DNA of 64,000 nt from an uncultured Acidobacteriota bacterium (GCA_963827655.1 CAWHCF010000006.1:64001-128000), one strand, 5' to 3'. Positions 25,796 to 41,838 are shown, numbered from the stretch's first letter. Notes: a model not told the origin generated them from the letters alone. A program made the numbers and translations.

Positions 25796-26740
25796 ATGCT
25801 ACCGAAATACGCCTTCTTCAGAGATCGCATCGTTCCGTACGCTGATGCGAAGGTCGGGGTGCTGACACACGGCCTCAACTACGGTACCGGGTGTTTTGCC
25901 GGGCTTCGAGGTTATTGGAACAGCGACCAGGAGGAACTCTTCGTCTTCCGCCCGCACGACCACTTCAAGCGGTTTCTTGAATCGGCCGCCTTGCTGCGGA
26001 TGGACCTGCCCTACCGACCGGCCGACCTGGTGACCCATCTGTTTGATCTTCTACGCGCCGAGGAGATCAGGACCGACTGTTACATCCGACCGCTGGCGTT
26101 CCTCGCCGATGAAACCCTGGGCGTCAAGCTGCACGGCCTGACTCCTGTGGTGTCGATCGTCGCTTTCCCTTTCGGCAAATTCATCGAGAAAGACGACGGA
26201 GCGCACGTAACCGTTTCAAGCTGGCGCAGGATCGACGACAACATGATCCCGGCCCGCGGCAAAATCACCGGCGGTTATGTCAACTCGGCGCTGGCGAAGT
26301 CCGACGCGCACCATGCGGGCTTCGACGACGCGATCCTGCTTAACCAGGAAGGGCGCGTCTCGGAGGGCCCGACCGCCAATGTCTTCCTGGCCCGCGGCGG
26401 TGCCGTCGTTACACCGCCGGTAACCGACGACATACTTGAAGGCATCGTTCGAAGAACGATTATTTCGCTTCTGCGGGACGAAATAGGCGTGCCGGTCGTC
26501 GAACGTTCTATCGACCGTTCCGAACTGTTCGTGGCGGATGAGGCGTTTTTTGCAGGCACTGGAATCCAGATTGTTCCGATCACGCGTATCGACCACCGGC
26601 CGGTGGGCAACGGACGGCCAGGCGCGCTGACCACCAACCTGAGATCCCTCTACTTCGATGTTGTCCGGGGCCGGGTGGCGAAGTACCGTACCTGGTGTGC
26701 GCCGGTTTACGCGCCTGTGAGCGCGGCGCTTTCTGCTTAG
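25796..26740 (+). CDS. ilvE: Branched-chain amino acid aminotransferase (class IV)
   Basis: HGLNYGTGCF, CYIRP, KITGGYVNS, SEGPTANVF, ILEGI, EAFFAGT. Confidence 0.85.
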   Translation: MLPKYAFFRDRIVPYADAKVGVLTHGLNYGTGCFAGLRGYWNSDQEELFVFRPHDHFKRFLESAALLRMDLPYRPADLVTHLFDLLRAEEIRTDCYIRPLAFLADETLGVKLHGLTPVVSIVAFPFGKFIEKDDGAHVTVSSWRRIDDNMIPARGKITGGYVNSALAKSDAHHAGFDDAILLNQEGRVSEGPTANVFLARGGAVVTPPVTDDILEGIVRRTIISLLRDEIGVPVVERSIDRSELFVADEAFFAGTGIQIVPITRIDHRPVGNGRPGALTTNLRSLYFDVVRGRVAKYRTWCAPVYAPVSAALSA

Positions 26741-26793
26741 GAAACCGCGAAGACGCCAACAATCAAACGCGAAGGGTTTACGGAGACACGATC

Positions 26794-27306
26794 ATGAGTG
26801 CATACCGCGAAAGAATGCTGTCGCTCCTGGGCGACCGGTCGCCCGGCGAGGCGATGGATGCGGCTCGCAAGCGCATCGAGGAACTTGTCGATCAACTGGG
26901 CGAGGAGGGTTTCTCACGAAGCTATGGACCGGGAAAATGGACGGCAAGGGAGATACTCGTGCATCTGGCCGATGCCGAGCTGGCCACCGGCTTCCGCATA
27001 CGCCAGGCGCTGGCCGAAGAGAACCACACGGTTCAGGTTTGGGACCAGGACCTCTGGGCCACGCGGTACGGCGATTTCGACGCCCGGCTTGCCGCCCGTA
27101 CCTTTGGCTCGCTCCGGTCATGGAATCTGGCGTTGATACGAACCCTCAGTGCCGAGGATCTCGCCAGGCCCGTGATGCATCCCGAACGCGGGATCGAATC
27201 GATCGGGCTCATGATCCGCATGCTGGCCGGACACGATCTTAATCACCTGGCGCAGCTCCAACAGATCGCCGGGCAGAAGAAAGAGGCGGCGACCAGAGAG
27301 TGCTAA
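26794..27306 (+). CDS. DinB/YfiT-family protein
   Basis: PGKWTAREILVHLADAE, HPERG, AGHDLNHL. Confidence 0.88.
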   Translation: MSAYRERMLSLLGDRSPGEAMDAARKRIEELVDQLGEEGFSRSYGPGKWTAREILVHLADAELATGFRIRQALAEENHTVQVWDQDLWATRYGDFDARLAARTFGSLRSWNLALIRTLSAEDLARPVMHPERGIESIGLMIRMLAGHDLNHLAQLQQIAGQKKEAATREC

Positions 27307-27414
27307 AGGCGGGTGATAGCAAACGAAGGACTTTTCAAATCTGTCGGAATTCTCGCTAGCAGGGGAGAGTTTTCCAGTGCTCAATGGCGCCTCAGCACGA
27401 GCAGGTTATTGACA

Positions 27415-28299
27415 ATGACACGACGCCCGAATTGGTTCAGCCGCGAATTCTCCTTCGATCTTCCTCTCTGGACATACCCCAATATCGTCGAGCGCTTGCG
27501 AGGGACGCCGGCGCGGCTGGAAGACCGGATCAGCTCGTTGCCGGGGAAAACCCTGACCAGGCGAGATCGCAATAACTGGTCGATCCAGGAAAACGCCGGT
27601 CATTTGCTAGACCTCGAGCCCCTGGGAATGGACCGGCTCGATGACTTCGCCGCCGGGCGGCAAACTCTGCGGGCTGCCGACCTTGCGAATCGAAAGACTT
27701 ACGAGGCAAATCACAACTCGAGTGCCATCAAAGACGTCTTGCTCTCCTTCCGGGCGGCACGCCTGGCGTTCGTCGAGCGATTGGACGGCTTCGACCAGGC
27801 ATTCGTTCAGCGCACGGCGACGCATCCCCGTCTCAAGAAGGAGATGCGCGTCCTGGACCTGGCTTTCTTCATCGCCGAGCATGATGACCATCATCTGGCT
27901 CGCATCACGGAACTGATCCGACTGTTCGAAAGCCAGGTACGCCGCGCGCTACGGGCGGCAAATTGGAACGAGCGAATAGGCTTGAAGGTATTGCGTTTAG
28001 TTCCACGAGGTCAGGGTAAGACCCCGTCTTTCCCACCGCCGCGCCGGGCGCCGCGGCGATGCTGGAGACGCTACGGTTCAATATCGGTCACATTGCGTCG
28101 TCGATCGAGTTCGACCCGGATAGCATCCGCTTCGTGCTTGATTTTACCGTCCCGGTACATCAGAAGGAGTCCAGTCTGGGACGGCGACGCTACATCGCCG
28201 CCCGTCACCCCCAGAATGGTGAGGGTGCTGCTTCCGCCTGCCGGTACGCCCGTTGCAGGCACTCCCGAACCGACGAAGCGAGGCGTAGCCGGCGTATAG
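27415..28299 (+). CDS. DinB-family protein; recognisable domain ends near 27930, remainder is probable read-through
   Basis: ERLRGTPARL, WSIQENAGHL, HPRL, AEHDDHHLARI. Confidence 0.75.
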   Translation: MTRRPNWFSREFSFDLPLWTYPNIVERLRGTPARLEDRISSLPGKTLTRRDRNNWSIQENAGHLLDLEPLGMDRLDDFAAGRQTLRAADLANRKTYEANHNSSAIKDVLLSFRAARLAFVERLDGFDQAFVQRTATHPRLKKEMRVLDLAFFIAEHDDHHLARITELIRLFESQVRRALRAANWNERIGLKVLRLVPRGQGKTPSFPPPRRAPRRCWRRYGSISVTLRRRSSSTRIASASCLILPSRYIRRSPVWDGDATSPPVTPRMVRVLLPPAGTPVAGTPEPTKRGVAGV

Positions 28300-30457: not shown

Positions 30458-32227
30458 TCAATCGAGGCGCGACAGCCGGACGGCTTTCAATTCCATGACA
30501 GACTCGCCAGGTTTGCTGAGAGCTTTCACGTAGAGCCGGTTCCGGCCTTGCCGGAGGTCCAGGACTCCGGGCGTCAGGGGCGCCCAGACCTTTTCGTAGA
30601 CTTCGCCCCGCGGAACGCGATCAGGGCTGGGAAGAGACTCAGGGTCGTGGGCCCGCCCGATCACGCCCTCGACCGCCTGACCTGCAACCTCGACACGAAT
30701 TCGCGATCCGACATCGCGCTCGGGGCAGGTAAACAGAAGCGTCACTTCGAAACGACCCGGCTGCACGACGTCAATCTCCCACGACACGGAGTCTTCGATT
30801 CGTTGCCATCCGGTAATCCAATCGTTAGCCCAACCCTGGCCTCCTTTGAATCTAAGGTTCCCGCTGAAATAGCTCTCGGGCGCCGGGAGTTCAACCATGC
30901 GCGCCTGCGGATAGCCCACCGGTATCGGTAATCGTTCGATGCCGTTCTGCGTCACGTCCTTTAACCAGGCGTCATAGGCAGACCGCAGGGTCTCTACCAG
31001 GCTGGTATTCTCGCCGGCGATGTCTTTTCGTTGCTCCGGGTCTGCAGACATATCATATAGCTCGCAGCGCTTCCCGTCGGTCACAAGCCGATGGCGCTCG
31101 CTCCTGACCGCCCCCAAAGCAGAATTCATCGCCCCGCCGCGCGATTGAACGGTAAAGATCCTGCGCTCGGGCCAGCCTTCGGACTTTCCTTTCAGCAGCG
31201 GTACCAGGCTGGTGCCATCGAGCGGCAATGTTCGCGGCATTGGAACCCCGCACAGTTCAAGCAAGGTCGGAAAGAGATCGATGTGAGCGGCAATCTTTTC
31301 CACTGTCATGCCCGGCTGGATGCGCCCCGGCCAGCGGATAAACAACGGCACGCGCACGCCTCCTTCGTGGACACTCCCTTTGATTCCTTTCATGCCGCCG
31401 TTGTAGCGTTCACCGTTCGGGCCGTTATCCGTGAGAAAAAGAACGATGGTCCGATCGGTCAACCGAGCCGCCTCGAGCTGCTTCAGGATCCGGCCCACGT
31501 TATCGTCGATATTTTCGACCATGCCGTAGATAGCCGCGGTCTTGTCGTCGAACCCACGTCCCTTATATTTACTGAAGTAGCGTTCGGGCACCTGAAACGG
31601 GCCGTGCGGCGCGTTGTACGGAATGTAGCAAAAGAAAGGACGGCCGCGCTGTTTGTCGATGAACGCGATCGCCGCGTCGGTCAGCACGTCGGTGATGTAA
31701 CCGTTCGTCTTGAAGGGCCTGCCGTTGTGCTCCAGCGTGGTGTCAAAGTAATTGTTCCAGTGGCCGGCACAGAAGCCGAGAAACTCGTCAAAACCCTGGC
31801 CCCCGGGACTGTGGGGATAGTGCGCGCCGTTATGCCACTTGCCGAAGCATCCGGTTGCGTACCCGGCATCCCGCAGAGCCTCGGCCAGAGTGAGCTCCTC
31901 GCTGCGCATCGTTTCCAGTCCGCGAGTCACCCAGGCGACACCCGTCCTCGGGTGGTACCGCCCGGTCAGCAAGCTTGCCCGCGTGGGAGCGCAGACCGGA
32001 CTGACGAAGAACCGGTTGAAGCGCGCTCCATCGGCCGCCAGCCTGTCGAGCACCGGCGTATCGAGTCGATCGTTGCCGTGCGAGCGGACGTCGCCCCACC
32101 CCATATCGTCCGCGACGATCAGAACCAGGTTCGGCCTGCTCTGAAGCCCCGCCTGATTCGAGCCGGCGAAAGGGACGGCGCACAGTTGGATGCACAGCAC
32201 CAAGCCGATAACCACCGCGTGTTTCAT
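30458..32227 (-). CDS. Arylsulfatase (formylglycine-dependent), secreted
   Basis: ADDMGWGD, CAPTRASLLTG (CxPxR), GKWH, APHGP, TDNG. Confidence 0.93.
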   Translation of the reverse strand: MKHAVVIGLVLCIQLCAVPFAGSNQAGLQSRPNLVLIVADDMGWGDVRSHGNDRLDTPVLDRLAADGARFNRFFVSPVCAPTRASLLTGRYHPRTGVAWVTRGLETMRSEELTLAEALRDAGYATGCFGKWHNGAHYPHSPGGQGFDEFLGFCAGHWNNYFDTTLEHNGRPFKTNGYITDVLTDAAIAFIDKQRGRPFFCYIPYNAPHGPFQVPERYFSKYKGRGFDDKTAAIYGMVENIDDNVGRILKQLEAARLTDRTIVLFLTDNGPNGERYNGGMKGIKGSVHEGGVRVPLFIRWPGRIQPGMTVEKIAAHIDLFPTLLELCGVPMPRTLPLDGTSLVPLLKGKSEGWPERRIFTVQSRGGAMNSALGAVRSERHRLVTDGKRCELYDMSADPEQRKDIAGENTSLVETLRSAYDAWLKDVTQNGIERLPIPVGYPQARMVELPAPESYFSGNLRFKGGQGWANDWITGWQRIEDSVSWEIDVVQPGRFEVTLLFTCPERDVGSRIRVEVAGQAVEGVIGRAHDPESLPSPDRVPRGEVYEKVWAPLTPGVLDLRQGRNRLYVKALSKPGESVMELKAVRLSRLD

Positions 32228-32411
32228 CGGAATTCCCGGCATCTGAGAGCCTTATACCGATTGGCGCGACCGATTTCAATCTCGCGTTTTCTGACCCGGC
32301 TCAACCACGAAGATGCCGCGCCGCGAGGAGACGCGGCGGCTGATTCCGCCCCACAGAACGCCACAATTCTGATAACCTCACGAGTTGGTTGGGTGTGGAG
32401 TTTGGACATTT

Positions 32412-36425: not shown

Positions 36426-36978
36426 TCATGCCCGGCGTTCACTGGATCCAATGGTGCGCGACATTCGAACCACCGGGACCTCCACTCCATCGGGTAGCCG
36501 CAGGCTGAACCGCTCTGTCTCGACGAAACCGGCCGCCCTATAAAGAGGCTCCCCGGGAAGCGTGGCAATGAGCTCCATCCTGAGGAACCCTGCCGCGCGC
36601 GCCGCCTCGATACTCCGTTCGATCAGGAGACTACCCAGGCCACGCCGTGCCCATTCGGGATCGACAAAGAAAGCACGGATTCGGGCAGCGTCGGTTGCCG
36701 GATCGAGCAGCGGATCCTCACCCTGCTTCATCTGATCGCCTCCGAAAAGCGTCCGCCGGCGGCTCCACCCGCCGCACGCGACCATGCGCCCTTCCGCCTC
36801 CACGACGTAATAGGTGCCGTCGGCGATGAGCCGTGTGTCCGCACCGAAGACGTAGCGCAGGCTACTCTCGATCTGCGACGCCGTGTAGTATCCGACGCTC
36901 AGGCCGCGGGCCGATTGTTCGATGAGCTTCTGGAGCTCGGGTACGTCCGCCATGCGTCGCAAGGCGCACGTGATGCAT
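36426..36978 (-). CDS. GNAT N-acetyltransferase; 5' frameshift
   Basis: ACGGWSRRRTLFGGD, IRAFFVDPEWARRGLG, ATLPGEPLY; MHHVRLAT start in an adjacent frame. Confidence 0.85.
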
Positions 36979-37160
36979 GGTGTTTTTCGCGTTCTTCGCG
37001 GGCTTCGCGCCTCAGCGGTTAGTTTTGTTCCGCCGCACTAACCGCGAAGACTCGAAGACGCTAAGGTTCGTTCGGGGACTTCGCCCCGAACGAAAGGCCC
37101 CTTGTGAACGACAACATGTTGGTTTGAACGTTTCACTAAGCGCCTAAGAAACGCCAAGCA

Positions 37161-38434
37161 TCACATGAAATTCGGGGTGTGCAGCTGGGAAAGCTCCGCG
37201 GCCTCGTCTTCCGTAAACCCGACCGATACCAGTCTCCTGATGCGATTCTCATGCATCGTGTGATACAGATCCTGGCGCGCTTGCATTCCTTGCGGCAGAC
37301 GCTCCGGTTGTAACCCCCGGCCGCCAGAATCGAAAGCGATTCCTCAACCAGCGGGTTCAATCCCTTAACCTCGGACAGCGCCGATGAGCGGTTGAAAACG
37401 GCTCGCCGGAGCTTTTCCTTCAGTCCGCTGATCTGGCCGATGGCAGCGCGCACGTGACCGAGAGCAAAGTGGACGTGGCGGGACTCATCCCGGCGCGTGC
37501 GGCGAGCAATCTCTCTCGTGACCGGCTCCGGGGCGTGGGTGTCGATATACTGAAGAAGATCGAGGAAAGTTCCCTCGCCGAGCACGCTCAGCAGAAAACT
37601 CGCCTGCAAGAAATCCTCCTGGTCGAGAAGTGACTTCAGCGAGGCCTGGGTGGATGCCGTCGAGAATTGAAGTCCTCCTCCGTTGGCCAATGCCCGTTTC
37701 ACAAAGACTTCTATATGACGCGCCTCGTCGCGCACCTGGGTCGAAAGGAAGAACACGGTCTCGGCGAATGCCGGGTGAATCCGGGCAATCCACTTAGCGG
37801 GAACGTAAAGGGCGGAAAACTCATTTTCCGCCAGAAAGGTCATCAACTGGCAGATGGCGCGCTCGAGTTCTTCCTCCAACGGCGTCAACTGGGCCCAGGG
37901 TATGTCGCGCGCGCTGTCCCAGTGTCCTCGAGTCGCCTGCTCATAGAGCTCGGACGCCGAGTCCGACCAGGCCTCGTTCGCGCGTACAACATCGAAGGAA
38001 AATTCAGGGCTTCCTTCCTCGACCACCGCCCCCCGCGGGGAAAATCCGCGAGAGAGATCGGCCTGCTCAGGGATTTCCGCGGACCGGCCCAGAAGCAGTG
38101 CCCGGGTGTCCAACCCTTCTTCACCACTCGACGCTCTCAAACCCCAGTCGGCCGATTCCCGAGTCAGGATGCGGGCTGCTTGCCCCTTCTCCAGCCATAC
38201 CGAGGTATTCCCGTCCGATCGTGTAACATCAAGACAGCGATTGGCTGTGAGCCTGGCCCACGCCGTCAGATCGTGTTCGACTGAAGGATTCCCCGAATCG
38301 ACCCGGAGCACCTGACCCGGCTTCAGGCGGTCCAGCATGCGAGTGACGAGAAGGAGCAAGCCTCCGCCGGCAGAGAGCCGGCCGACGTCACAGCTCAGAT
38401 CCGAGCGCCTGGTCTCCTCACGCACGCTCTTCAT
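37161..38434 (-). CDS. TusA-like domain fused to a ferritin-like di-iron domain; frameshift in a G-run near 37315
   Basis: N-terminal LKPGQVLRV...DLTAWARLT; ENEF, DEARH, EGTF, DESRH; the shifted frame ends ...ELSQLHTPNFM* at 37161. Confidence 0.8.
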
Positions 38435-39248
38435 ATGGGGCGAAAAAATTGAGGGCCTCCACCGCCTCGAACAGAGCCTGGTAGCCGTCCATACTCGGAG
38501 GAACCCACCGCTTGAGACCTTCCATGTCCATAATCGGGCGATGGGCCGGGTTGTTGTATTCCATCGCCAGCAAGGCGTCCGTCCAGGGCCGAAATCGGTC
38601 GACGTCAGCGTCCGACCGCACGGTGAAATTGCAGTGACAGTACGGGGGGGACGTCCAGAAGGCCTTCACCTCTCCGCTGGCGGCCGGACCCTCGCCCAGG
38701 GCTCGCGCCCAGTACTGGTCGCCGACCGCGCCCGCATCGGCTTCTCCCCGGGACACGGCGTTCAACACTTCCACTTCGCTCGTCCCGGTGTCGCCGTGCT
38801 TCCCGACATCGAGGTCAAACCGGATCGCCGTGAGGTCCCGCCCAGGATCGATTCCGCTCTGCTTGAGAAAATACCAGGGAAGAATGGCGGCCTGGCCCGA
38901 GTCGCGGCTGCCGAAAGCCACCCGCTTACCTCTCAGGTCGTGCACAGATTCAACGCCGCTTCCGGCCCGGGCGATCATCTTGGTTGTGAAGCCCACATCC
39001 GTATCGCGCATCGCCAGGGCCCGGCACTTTCCCTTCGTAAGGCGATGCGTCTTGATATAGGCCAGGTTCGTATTCCATGCGATCTCGATGGCATCGGCGA
39101 GCAGCGCTTCCACCTGGGCATCGTAGTTTGAGAACAGAACGTAGTCGGTTGCGATCCCACGGCTGCGAAAGTAGTCCTTGAGCGCTTCCCAGATTGTAAC
39201 CACCTTGGGATCGTAAGCCACCGCTCCGACTCGAACCATATCTTTCAT
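38418..39248 (-). CDS. PhnD/SsuA-type substrate-binding-fold protein without a signal peptide
   Basis: GAVAYDPKVVTIWE, IAWNT, DLRGKRVAFGSRDS, GKHGDTG, ADAGAVG, YCHCNF. Confidence 0.85.
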   Translation of the reverse strand: MKDMVRVGAVAYDPKVVTIWEALKDYFRSRGIATDYVLFSNYDAQVEALLADAIEIAWNTNLAYIKTHRLTKGKCRALAMRDTDVGFTTKMIARAGSGVESVHDLRGKRVAFGSRDSGQAAILPWYFLKQSGIDPGRDLTAIRFDLDVGKHGDTGTSEVEVLNAVSRGEADAGAVGDQYWARALGEGPAASGEVKAFWTSPPYCHCNFTVRSDADVDRFRPWTDALLAMEYNNPAHRPIMDMEGLKRWVPPSMDGYQALFEAVEALNFFAPYEERA

Positions 39249-39281
39249 GACGCCCTCCGGGATCGATGCCCGCGATCGAAA

Positions 39282-40454
39282 TCAAAACAATGGGATTCCC
39301 GCTACAGCCTTCCCGATGAAATCGCAAAGTACGTCGGTCGTCGGCGCCATCACCGAAGCCGCGCGGGCATCACGGAAGTTGCGCTCAATGCTCAATTGAC
39401 GGCCGAATGCCGCGCCGCCGCAGGCGCGCATCGCCTCATCGGTAACTTCAAGAGCTGCCTCGCCCGCCACCGCCTTCACCCCCAGGACCGAGAGCATGGC
39501 CGACGGGCTATCGGCTTCTATCGCGCCCAGGGTCTGTTCGAGGAACGCGCTGGCCGAATCGAGCGCCAGTTTCATGCGAGCGAGCCGGGCCCGAATTCCG
39601 GGCACGGCCGAGGCGAGGCTCTCGCCCAGATGCTCCAGCCGGGCCGTACTCGTATGCTTTACGGCGCCGGCGAAGGCGGATTCGCCGATCCCAAGCGACA
39701 CCGACGCGCTTCCAACCTGAAACCAGGGGAGGGCGACACCCAGCATCATCTTCAAACCTTCCCCTTCTTCGGTGAGGCGGTAGTCGTCCTTTACGCGACA
39801 GTCGCGCAGCTGCATGGGAGCGCTGGCGTTTCCCCGCAGCCCCAGGCCGTTCCAGCGCCCGCTGACCTCTATCCCAGCCGCCTCACGCTCCACCAGATAA
39901 ATGGTTGAATCAAGCGGCCCTTTCGCCGTCACGGCACCCGACGATGCTACGTAATAATCCGCGTAGCCGGCGCTGGTGACAAACGACTTGTCACAGTTGA
40001 GAATGGTCGAACCATCGTTTCGAGCCGCGCGGCTCACGGGAGCCCAGAAATGACTGCGCGATCCGCGTTCGCTGAATGCCAGAGTCGCAAGCGCGTTGCC
40101 GGAGACAATCTTGCGCATGACTCTTTCCTTCTCCGGCGAACCCGAGGCTGCAATGACCTGGGCCCCGCAAACGTGCATAAGGTAAATCATGGCGGTCGAA
40201 GCGCAGGAGCCGGCAATTTTTCTCGTGACCGCCGCGAACTCTCGCATCCCAAGTCCGGCGCCTCCTGTCTCGTGAGGCAGTGTAAGGCCTAGCAGCCTGG
40301 CGGCGCTGACGGCCTCGATGGACTTTTGAGGCCAGCGTCCTTCGGCATCGACGCCGGCCGCCTCCGCTTCCAGGATGGGGCGCACACTCTCTTCGATTGT
40401 CTTCAGACGTTCATCACGCGCGCTCGACGTTGCACTGGTGCTCATTGGCTCCAC
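39282..40454 (-). CDS. Acyl-CoA dehydrogenase-fold flavoprotein (non-canonical)
   Basis: CASTAMIYLMH, LAFSERGSRSHFWAP, KSFVTSAG, GLRGNAS, ERNFRDARA. Confidence 0.88.
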   Translation of the reverse strand: MEPMSTSATSSARDERLKTIEESVRPILEAEAAGVDAEGRWPQKSIEAVSAARLLGLTLPHETGGAGLGMREFAAVTRKIAGSCASTAMIYLMHVCGAQVIAASGSPEKERVMRKIVSGNALATLAFSERGSRSHFWAPVSRAARNDGSTILNCDKSFVTSAGYADYYVASSGAVTAKGPLDSTIYLVEREAAGIEVSGRWNGLGLRGNASAPMQLRDCRVKDDYRLTEEGEGLKMMLGVALPWFQVGSASVSLGIGESAFAGAVKHTSTARLEHLGESLASAVPGIRARLARMKLALDSASAFLEQTLGAIEADSPSAMLSVLGVKAVAGEAALEVTDEAMRACGGAAFGRQLSIERNFRDARAASVMAPTTDVLCDFIGKAVAGIPLF

Positions 40455-40588: not shown

Positions 40589-40622
40589 CCCAATCGTCAA
40601 TCGTCAATCGTAAATCGTCAAT
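40589..40622 (-). repeat. GATTGAC heptamer array
   Basis: 34 nt identical to 48048-48081; contains the stop codon of the upstream radical SAM gene. Confidence 0.9.
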
Positions 40623-41672
40623 TAGAGAAGAGCTGCAACTGCGCGGCGCTCCCGCGGGTGAAGTGATGGGTGGACAGTTCAACGCGAGTTTGGTTCAGGC
40701 CGTACTTCCGGCACGACAGATTGAATAGAGTTCGAAGACTTTCCGCCAGTTTACCCTCGCCGCGCATTCGCGTTCCGAAACGGCTGTCGCTCAGTTTCCC
40801 GTCCCGCATGTCGCGCAAGCGCCCGAGTACTTTCGGGGCGCGCTCGGGTAACTCGCGCTTGAGCCAGTCGAGAAACAAGGGCTCCACCGCGCCTGGTAAT
40901 CGGACGAGAATGTAAGCCGCAGTGAGCGCTCCACGCGCCGCTGATTCTCTCAGAATCGACGGCAGTTCCTCGTCGGTCAGGCCCGGGATCAACGGAGCCG
41001 CGTTGACCCCGACCGGTATCCTGTTGGCAGCCAGGGTCTCCACCGCCTCCAGCCGCTTTGCCGGCGCCGACGCGCGCGGTTCCATGATTCTGGCCAGGCC
41101 GGGATCAAGGGTCGTGATCGAGAGATGTACATGTACCAGGTTCAATTTCGCCAGCTGCCGCAATATATCGAGGTCGCGCGTAATCAGAAGATTCTTGGTG
41201 ATCAATCCCACAGGATTGCGATACTTGAGAAAAACTTCAAGACAGCGGCGCGTCAACTGAAGCTTGCGCTCGATCGGCTGGTAGGCATCCGTGTTCCCCG
41301 AGAATGCAATAACCTGCGGCTTCCACGATTTTCGCTGGAAAGCTTGCTCCAACAACTGCGGCGCTTCCGGCTTCACGAGTATCTTCGATTCAAAGTCAAT
41401 CCCCGCGGAAAAGCCCAGGTACTCGTGAGACGGCCGGCGCATAGCAGTAGATGCAGCCATGCTCGCACCCGCGATAAGGATTGATGCTGAAGGTAAAGGG
41501 AACGTCCGGACTGTCATTTCGAGCCAGGATTTCGCGCGTGGAGTCGATAAAAAGCTCGGTCGGGACAGCCGGCTCGTCGTCGCAGAAACTCATCCAGGGG
41601 CTCGAACCGCATGGGCTCGAACCGGTTGGGTGGATTGAAGCTGGCCCCACGCCCTTTTTTTGCCTCCGCCAT
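40618..41672 (-). CDS. PA0069-family radical SAM protein; frameshifts near 41440 and 41600
   Basis: KGRGA..NPPNRF, SINPYRGCEHGCIYCYA, SGNTDAYQP, ITK, MEPRAS. Confidence 0.88.
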
Positions 41673-41838
41673 GGGGTAAAGATAAAAGAACTCGACCCGC
41701 GATGCAAATCAGCGGCCGCTGCCCGTGTCGTCATCGGTTGAGCAGATCCCTGGAATTCGGCGCTACAATCCACGCATCATTTTGATATAGTCCGCCCCGG
41801 TGGTAACTCTGGTTACAACTATCCAAAGGAGGGATCCG

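Follow-up and report, generated by a model that had tools for sequence, protein, structure and literature searches.

Here, we describe a three-gene system encoded on the minus strand at positions 37161-40454 of a 64,000-nucleotide stretch of DNA, hereafter the window, from an uncultured Acidobacteriota bacterium (GCA_963827655.1 CAWHCF010000006.1:64001-128000). We put the chances at about even that this trio is a cytoplasmic enzyme system, not a transporter, and that it represents a di-metal variant of the widespread Rv1679-Rv1680-Rv1681 cassette working by the mechanism proposed below, a reading drawn from sequence comparison. Its predicted core consists of an acyl-CoA dehydrogenase (ACAD)-fold protein without the catalytic Glu and a PhnD-fold protein without a signal peptide, and the motifs of the latter are constant across the lineages examined. 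The first gene (39282..40454, minus strand, 390 aa) encodes a flavoprotein resembling Rv1679/FadE16, with MAPT in place of YEGT, as recognised from its open reading frame (ORF), Pfam and NCBIfam NF049984. After a gap of 33 bp follows the gene of the PhnD-fold cytoplasmic protein (38418..39248, minus strand, 276 aa; Pfam PF12974, NCBIfam NF049985, PDB 7s6g), which resembles Rv1680, carries the motifs MRDTD, GSRDSGQA, GKHGDTG and YCHC, and is called SBP-like here for its substrate-binding protein (SBP) fold. The third gene (37161..38434, minus strand) overlaps the second by 17 bp and encodes a fusion of a TusA-like and a di-metal domain; it is frame-broken in the window and encodes 424 aa in intact relatives. 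The ORF coordinates agree with the three co-oriented, tightly linked genes and with the gap and overlap given in the initial annotation, which had been made from the sequence alone.

A scan of one genome per species returned at least 588 loci with a relative of the SBP-like gene, and the best 80, nearest to the window, were examined, with neighbourhood counts obtained from hidden Markov model (HMM) and tblastn searches. These 80 loci span about ten phyla, with Acidobacteriota, Planctomycetota, Armatimonadota, Chloroflexota, Bacillota, Actinomycetota, Myxococcota, Dormibacterota and Melainabacteria among them. In 67 of the 70 loci with enough upstream sequence to be evaluated, the ACAD gene immediately precedes the SBP-like gene; in the three exceptions (L054, L061 and L079), MFS transporter, response regulator or thiolase-like genes stand in its place. 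The third partner is of two kinds. Among 57 evaluable loci, it is a radical S-adenosylmethionine (SAM) protein in 29, the TusA/di-iron fusion in 18 and neither in 10, and the two never occur together; in the full set of 80, 38 loci have the radical SAM protein, 23 the fusion (including the internally deleted L002) and 19 neither. Gemmataceae and Obscuribacterales are represented among the genomes with neither partner. The alternative partner matches NF049973 'Rv1681 family radical SAM protein' with 472.6 bits at a cut-off of 380.

The fusion gene is situated downstream of the ACAD and SBP-like pair in 12 loci (Acidobacteriota, one Gemmataceae and one Armatimonadota) and upstream in 11 (Bacillota, Dehalococcoidia, some Actinomycetota such as L014 and L075, and one Armatimonadota). 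In the Bacillota, where Paenibacillus chartarius CCM 7759 (L022, 7522-10804) and Cohnella zeiphila (L021) provide examples of an intact trio, it forms a compact three-gene unit with unrelated flanks, mostly in opposite orientation, and some actinobacterial loci contain an Rv1678-like membrane protein. On a quick IQ-TREE phylogeny of the SBP-like proteins (short search, rooted on periplasmic relatives), all di-iron-fusion loci fall on one side, and the two partner labels need a single change. The initial annotation had taken the genes for an orphan three-gene system. The word orphan has to be given up, because the best NCBIfam matches are NF049984 and NF049985 and the trio is a variant of the Rv1679/Rv1680/Rv1681 cassette; the three-gene description stands as a conserved cassette, in which the di-iron protein is only one of two alternative third partners. 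Co-conservation of the trio thus amounts to an adjacent ACAD gene in 67/70 loci and an adjacent TusA/di-iron gene in 18/57 (23/80).

The ACAD-fold protein matches PF02771, PF02770 and PF00441 with 51.9, 45.7 and 55.5 bits, each above the respective cut-off. Its top NCBIfam match, with a lead of more than 300 bits, is NF049984 'Rv1679 family acyl-CoA dehydrogenase' (452 bits, E 1.7e-135, positions 8-371 of 371), and matches below cut-off to SfnB and 3-sulfinopropanoyl-CoA desulfinase reach 107-132 bits. The nearest PDB entries are short-chain and butyryl-CoA dehydrogenases (E 5e-35 to 3e-31). When aligned by HMMER with the butyryl-CoA dehydrogenase 9w60 and with human short-chain ACAD 2vig, RDARAASVMAPTTDV faces RDAKITEIYEGTSEV, with MAPT opposite the catalytic YEGT, and LPWFQVGSAS faces LDGGRIGIAS. 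All 67 aligned family ACADs (the window protein and those of 66 loci with a full-length ORF of at least 200 bits, fragments and split ORFs being excluded) have M-A-P in place of Y-E-G, which makes the loss of the catalytic base a family trait and not an accident of the window copy. At the helix-G position, which we take to correspond to that of the alternative Glu of IVD/LCAD, the family ACADs possess an invariant Phe within x-F-x-x-G. These alignments confirm the MAPT-type replacement and the WFQVG at the GRIG helix that had been noted at the outset, and the 67/67 replacement of the catalytic Glu supports the earlier suspicion that the protein is probably no standard dehydrogenase.

The SBP-like protein belongs to Pfam Phosphonate-bd (PF12974, 134 bits) and best matches NF049985 'Rv1680 family SBP-like protein' (348 bits, E 3.9e-104, positions 4-261 of 268). 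The next NCBIfam match, TIGR04553 'putative selenate ABC transporter SBP', scores 120 bits, below its cut-off, and a weak NMT1/THI5 Pfam match scores 23.5 bits. A PDB search found cyanobacterial PhnD 7s6g at E 2.5e-24, and the family profile found 7s6g (1.5e-32) and 5lq5 (2.8e-28), then PtxB and AioX 6esk (7e-7). Among 8000 candidates scored, 6763 are relatives at E<=1e-3, and those at E<=1e-30 form 140 clusters at 50% identity; the window protein is 66-72% identical to its counterparts in L001-L005 and L017, which probably places the organism within the Acidobacteriota, close to gp5, Solibacteraceae and Sulfopaludibacter genomes. It has the fold and Pfam family of the periplasmic binding proteins PhnD, PtxB and AioX, and partly their SNY, RDxD and GSxS motifs, but differs from them in lacking both a signal peptide and a permease/ATPase partner.

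Signal peptides were called from the room within the ORF and by inspection of hydrophobicity in 81 SBP-like genes, namely those of the 80 related loci and of the window. In the window protein the fold begins at residue 5-6, and in 68 of the 81 genes at most 10 residues precede the profile start even in the longest possible ORF. In the remaining 13, the reading frame runs on into the upstream gene, and the resulting Arg-rich extensions lack a hydrophobic signal-like stretch. Since it has no signal peptide, the SBP-like protein is placed in the cytoplasm. The genes called up to about 12 kb to either side of the trio include no ABC (ATP-binding cassette) permease or ATPase. Across the 81 loci, where ABC-transporter neighbours were sought by ATPase motifs only and permeases were not searched for directly, ORFs with Walker A and LSGG are present within 10 kb in six, the nearest at 2.6 kb and none adjacent. 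The start at the fold and the absence of a signal and of a nearby permease or ATPase, as first described, thus hold for the window, and homologues with signal peptides and ABC permeases are not the rule (no room for a signal in 68/81, an ABC-ATPase-like ORF in 6/81).

Relatives with signal peptides (P0263, P0268, P0298, P0328 and P0346, these five 31-38% identical) form an outgroup clade with 99% support at 28-38% identity, and GKHGDTG is absent or altered in P0263 and P0268. Within the cassette, GKHGDTG and the HC of YCHC, two motifs already picked out in the initial annotation and both present, are invariant in 81/81 SBP-like genes, the first Cys of YCHC being variable. The motifs SNY, AWNTN, MRDxD, GSxDSxQA, GKHGDTGxSE, YxHCxF and EGLxxW are the same whether the locus has the di-iron partner, the radical SAM partner or neither. 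P0271 and P0272 also keep GKHGDTG and carry N-terminal Arg/Ala/Ser-rich extensions of 40-55 aa, which look organelle-transit-like rather than like a bacterial signal peptide. Among 17 unusually long SBP-like relatives, four contain tandem SBP domains and six are fusions to FMO-like flavin monooxygenases (P0282, P0289, P0336, P0361, P0367 and P0373), with the FMO domain on either side of the SBP module. The fusions support the idea that the SBP-like module may serve flavoenzymes. Cytoplasmic, metabolic use of this fold has precedents in the SBP-fold enzymes MqnA, MqnD and Thi5/NMT1, which the window protein resembles in fold only; it is a candidate addition to the short list of SBP folds recruited into cytoplasmic enzymology.

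In the third protein, the TusA-like N-terminal domain without the CPxP Cys (about residues 12-90; 38165..38401, minus strand) was recognised from Pfam, from a joint profile described below and from an AlphaFold2 (AF2) model. The ferritin-like di-metal carboxylate domain (from about residue 155 to the end; 37164..37972, minus strand), with HTPNFM at its C-terminus, was recognised from alignment invariants, PDB profiles and Foldseek. TusA PF01206 scores 29.4 bits (cut-off 28.6) and AurF PF11583 scores 23.8 bits, below its gathering cut-off of 29.6; PF11583 is precomputed on some relatives, e.g., P0001. Searched against the PDB as a single sequence, the TusA-like domain gave chance-level matches only, and the fusion-family profile found R2lox (E 1e-7), a VlmB homologue (3e-5) and E. 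coli TusA (5e-5). The NCBIfam models gave nothing for the di-iron fusion beyond a weak match to the R2lox model NF006200 (37.7 bits vs a cut-off of 194, residues 146-246 only), and an Atlas search yielded only 'hypothetical' and AurF-bearing clusters. Among 8000 candidates scored, 4392 are relatives of the fusion at E<=1e-3; a search for the di-iron protein in longer fusions came up empty, which is weak evidence. Neither a radical SAM domain (CxxxCxxC core) in the third protein, by Pfam, nor an Rv1681-type gene anywhere in the 64-kb window was found.

The CPxP Cys position holds no Cys in the window protein, in 28/28 aligned fusions, in 22/22 locus-derived fusion N-domains and in 12 radical SAM N-domains. 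When the profile alignment is extended without gaps, G-G-G-L in the window comes to stand opposite TusA residues 19-22, where we take the CPxP motif to lie. Invariant in 28/28 fusions are E203/E205, D236-E237-x-x-H240, F244, E287, D316-E317-x-x-H320 and the C-terminal HTPNFM. The six-ligand set E, ExxH, E, ExxH is complete, and the two ExxH motifs fall on their R2lox counterparts in the alignment. The TusA/SirA-like domain without its Cys and the di-iron domain with E/DExRH twice and an HTPNFM end, both reported earlier for the window copy, are thus shared by all fusions aligned. The AF2 model of a 97% identical relative (pLDDT 78, pTM 0.80) comprises a confident beta-alpha-beta N-domain (pLDDT 90-95 over residues 11-80), a disordered linker (residues 121-152) and a helical bundle. 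With this bundle, Foldseek retrieved 6d9f/VlmB, R2lox, ribonucleotide reductase (RNR) R2 and aldehyde-deformylating oxygenase (E 4e-5 to 7e-4, target-normalised TM 0.47-0.79). R2lox (4hr0, 6f6c; 4ac8 from M. tuberculosis) is the best PDB profile match and has the same ferritin-like fold and E/ExxH/E/ExxH ligands (target-normalised TM 0.47-0.65, identity 17-20%), but the window protein differs from it in the additional TusA-like domain and the conserved HTPNFM tail.

The two alternative third partners share their N-terminal domain. Positions 6-91 of the fusion profile match Rv1681-type radical SAM ORFs (E 2e-7 to 3e-4), the radical SAM profile reciprocally matches the window fusion protein (E 6e-6), and hhalign of the fusion and radical SAM N-domain alignments gave a probability of 97.5% (E 6.9e-12). 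The joint alignment shows the pattern D-x-G...GLL...G..L.V...DL..WCR.TGN...R.G, and the joint profile of about 80 aa finds E. coli TusA 1dcj/3lvj at E 8e-6. In the 81 loci, this profile detects all di-iron and radical SAM proteins and otherwise just two broken fragments of those genes. Given a homologous N-domain on both partners, their architectures read [TusA-like]-[radical SAM] and [TusA-like]-[di-metal]; the predicted di-metal domain takes the place of the radical SAM domain on a homologous, Cys-less TusA-like N-domain.

The families of M. tuberculosis Rv1678-Rv1681 (NF049986, NF049984, NF049985 and NF049973; Rv1681 = MoeX) provide the full-length best matches for the ACAD-fold and SBP-like proteins. 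The trio resembles the Rv1679-Rv1681 cassette in the adjacency of the ACAD and SBP-like genes and in the TusA-like N-domain of the third protein. It differs in that a ferritin-like di-metal domain replaces the radical SAM domain in the third protein and that the window contains no Rv1678-like membrane protein. The four genes presumably neighbour each other in M. tuberculosis, judging from their locus tags, and this locus is outside the 80. NCBIfam already has models for the families of this cassette, of which the trio represents a di-iron variant. Rv1681 has reportedly served as a urine biomarker or diagnostic antigen. A search of open-access papers and preprints found no functional study of Rv1678-Rv1681, fadE16 or MoeX. 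The initial annotation had warned that automated naming would present the system as transport, and this is what has happened: JGI names relatives 'phosphonate transport system substrate-binding protein' and 'TusA-related sulfurtransferase', the fusion also going under 'hypothetical' in its sources, and one paper calls Rv1680 a 'putative phosphonate transporter component' (PMC8562490). Another paper places Rv1680 among efflux-pump genes (PMC12195134).

In the mechanism that we propose, the TusA-like domain would serve as an adaptor, docking the metallo-catalyst onto the core of flavoprotein and SBP-like protein. The di-metal domain would use O2 to carry out the H-abstraction or oxidation step that the radical SAM domain would perform with SAM. 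The SBP-like protein may hold a small substrate with a tetrahedral oxyanion or a similar anionic group; the partial retention of the PhnD anion-loop motifs (SNY, RDxD and GSxS), on which the idea of an anionic substrate is based, is only suggestive. The flavoprotein would contribute a coupled two-electron step or an electron supply, without classical alpha-proton abstraction. A cytoplasmic oxidative enzyme system had been put forward in the initial annotation, and the in silico checks aimed at refuting it, on signals, co-conservation and the ACAD base, support it.

A wider proposal, to which we give somewhat less than even chances, is that these cassettes constitute a new class of modular three-component oxidoreductases. 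In such a class, a Cys-less TusA-like adaptor would plug either a radical SAM or a ferritin-like Fe/Fe or Mn/Fe catalyst into a core of base-less ACAD and cytoplasmic PhnD-fold proteins acting on one common metabolite. Two unrelated metallo-catalysts in one place are likewise found in the pairs AcsF/BchE and class I R2/class III RNR activase, which are O2-dependent di-iron and radical SAM counterparts. The cassette differs from these pairs in that both catalysts sit on a homologous adaptor domain and that its radical SAM form is common in aerobes. If true, the modular class would also give M. tuberculosis Rv1679-Rv1681 (MoeX) a function. The comparison further offers a framework for a cassette that occurs in hundreds of species, with the SBP-like gene present in at least 588 species genomes of the scan. 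Its proteins routinely receive misleading names, which make them a beta-oxidation enzyme, part of a phosphonate transporter, a sulfurtransferase or a molybdopterin enzyme.

Several observations weigh against these interpretations. The examination covered only the 80 loci most like the window, and the matches of the window proteins to their NCBIfam families stay below the curated cut-offs (452 bits vs 600 for NF049984 and 348 vs 400 for NF049985). Neither third partner is nearby in 10 of the 57 evaluable loci, and in L054, L061 and L079 the SBP-like gene is adjacent to an Rv1681-type radical SAM gene without the ACAD. The branch of the di-iron clade has only 82% SH-aLRT support, and the exclusivity of the partners amounts to about one evolutionary switch and thus has little statistical weight. 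Aerobic actinomycetes (Streptomyces, e.g., the strains of L070 and L074, and Arthrobacter) commonly have the radical SAM variant, so a simple aerobe/anaerobe split does not explain the swap. Finally, three of the seven members of the window's clade (the window, L002 and L005) have a degraded di-iron gene or none, and the gene could be dispensable there.

Of the other explanations, N-oxygenation of the valanimycin type fares best, although we consider it unlikely. Here, the ACAD-fold protein would be a flavin N-hydroxylase (VlmH/DnmZ/KijD3-like), the di-iron protein an N-oxygenase of the AurF/VlmB type, and the SBP-like protein would bind an anionic amine, e.g., an aminophosphonate. VlmH acts in valanimycin biosynthesis, a pathway that pairs this ACAD-fold flavoenzyme with a ferritin-like di-iron enzyme. 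The di-iron N-oxygenases VlmB/AurF supply the top structural matches of the bundle (6d9f and the azoxy synthase VlmB 8wvr, E 4e-5 to 1e-4), in line with the weak Pfam AurF match and the PF11583 assignments precomputed on some relatives. Moreover, the ACAD-fold N-oxygenase DnmZ 4zxv is matched at E 1.8e-20, and the FMO-like fusions of SBP-like relatives partly match the N-hydroxylating Lys/Orn oxygenase family. However, the ACAD-fold protein is closer to true short-chain ACADs (E 1e-33 to 1e-35) than to DnmZ/DszC (E 1e-15 to 1e-20), the AurF score remains under the gathering cut-off, and no flavin reductase gene is kept nearby in the related loci. To our knowledge, the valanimycin system includes neither an SBP-like protein nor a TusA-like domain, and we know of no N-oxygenation counterpart of the interchangeable radical SAM partner, which also counts against this explanation.

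Less probable still is, by analogy with ribonucleotide reduction, a radical generator or activase, in which the R2-like di-metal or the radical SAM protein would supply a radical or a modification to the ACAD-fold or SBP-like protein, and HTPNFM would be a docking tail. In ribonucleotide reduction, class I uses R2, whose tail has a known role, and class III uses an activase. The structural matches to RNR R2 and R2lox, the alternation of di-metal and radical SAM domains on a shared adaptor domain and the invariance of HTPNFM at the extreme C-terminus are all consistent with such a role. It is opposed by the invariant Phe F244, four residues past the His of the first ExxH, at a position that is presumably Tyr in radical-bearing R2 proteins. 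In addition, a glycyl-radical-type motif was not seen in the partner proteins, in which no search aimed at such a motif was made.

We regard sulfur or selenium trafficking, with the TusA-like domain as a persulfide or perselenide carrier, as improbable. The Pfam TusA match would fit this role, as would the scores of the SBP-like protein on TIGR04553 (120 bits) and of the ACAD-fold protein on SfnB and 3-sulfinopropanoyl-CoA desulfinase (107-132 bits), and a selenium-type LysR near some loci (230 bits, cut-off 250). However, the carrier Cys is absent in 28/28 fusions and 22/22 locus N-domains, and the named NCBIfam matches (TIGR04553, SfnB and the desulfinase) are far under their curated cut-offs. 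The least credible explanation is the ordinary annotation suggested by the domain-level Pfam matches and the source names, i.e., a beta-oxidation ACAD, a periplasmic phosphonate-binding protein and a TusA sulfurtransferase as chance neighbours, which is contradicted by the adjacency kept across about ten phyla, by the lack of a signal peptide and of adjacent ABC genes, and by the loss of both the catalytic Glu and the TusA Cys.

The break in the third gene lies at a run of five G (37314..37318, minus strand). As called, the third ORF comprises 432 aa, ends with a stop at 37136 and has an unconserved tail; the frame that ends in HTPNFM (stop at 37161-37163) is shifted by -1 from the upstream one. 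The intact relatives P0001-P0003 (87-97% identical, 424 aa) have GG-LQPE at this site and read ...SILAAGGLQPERLP...HTPNFM without interruption across the five-G run, so the window is one base short there. Because the downstream frame is almost the same as in the 97% relative, the break must stem either from an error in the assembly or from a very recent inactivation. Immediately preceding the trio, a radical SAM gene of the PA0069 family (40618-41773, minus strand) is likewise frame-split, near 41430-41445 in a C/G-rich stretch, with profile positions 28-77 in ORF 41396-41773 and positions 75-348 in ORF 40618-41517. The occurrence of two such breaks within 4.3 kb suggests that the assembly contains indel errors. 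On the other side, the window's seven-member clade contains L002 (10761-11317), in which the di-iron gene is internally deleted (approximately residues 30-91 and 338-424 are left and the contig runs on), and L005 (1192-3267), in which the gene is absent and UvrB immediately follows the SBP-like gene; this favours real decay.

Elsewhere, the surroundings of the cassette show further regularities. A longer conserved cluster of the radical-SAM type is situated downstream of the SBP-like gene in ten loci from Acidobacteriaceae and Myxococcota (L043, L056, L057, L059, L061, L067, L069, L073, L079 and L080). It encodes a radical SAM protein, an unknown protein of 235-278 aa, a GT87-like membrane protein, TIGR04282 (DUF2064/CofC-like), a GT2 protein (dolichyl-phosphate-hexose-transferase-like) and DoxX, a gene content that may point towards polyprenyl-phosphate sugars or the cell envelope. 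A LysR regulator is found near the cassette in L007, L009, L011, L067 and L075; the one member scanned (L011, 4003-4929) resembles the NCBIfam 'selenium metabolism-associated LysR' with 230 bits, below the cut-off of 250.

Within the window, the GC content is unremarkable, and promoter and terminator scans returned no more sites than shuffled sequence. PADLOC gave zero matches for the trio, which is thus not a known defence system. The adjacency of the flanking GNAT (36426-36962) and PA0069-type radical SAM (40618-41773) genes to the trio is not kept in the related loci, and both were therefore excluded from the system. A sulfatase gene (Pfam Sulfatase, 219 bits; 30458-32242, minus strand) is located 5 kb from the trio and is not kept beside the cassette elsewhere. 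Further away, two successive ORFs of the DinB_2 superfamily (26695-28299, plus strand; 203 and 328 aa) could be a tandem pair or a split gene.

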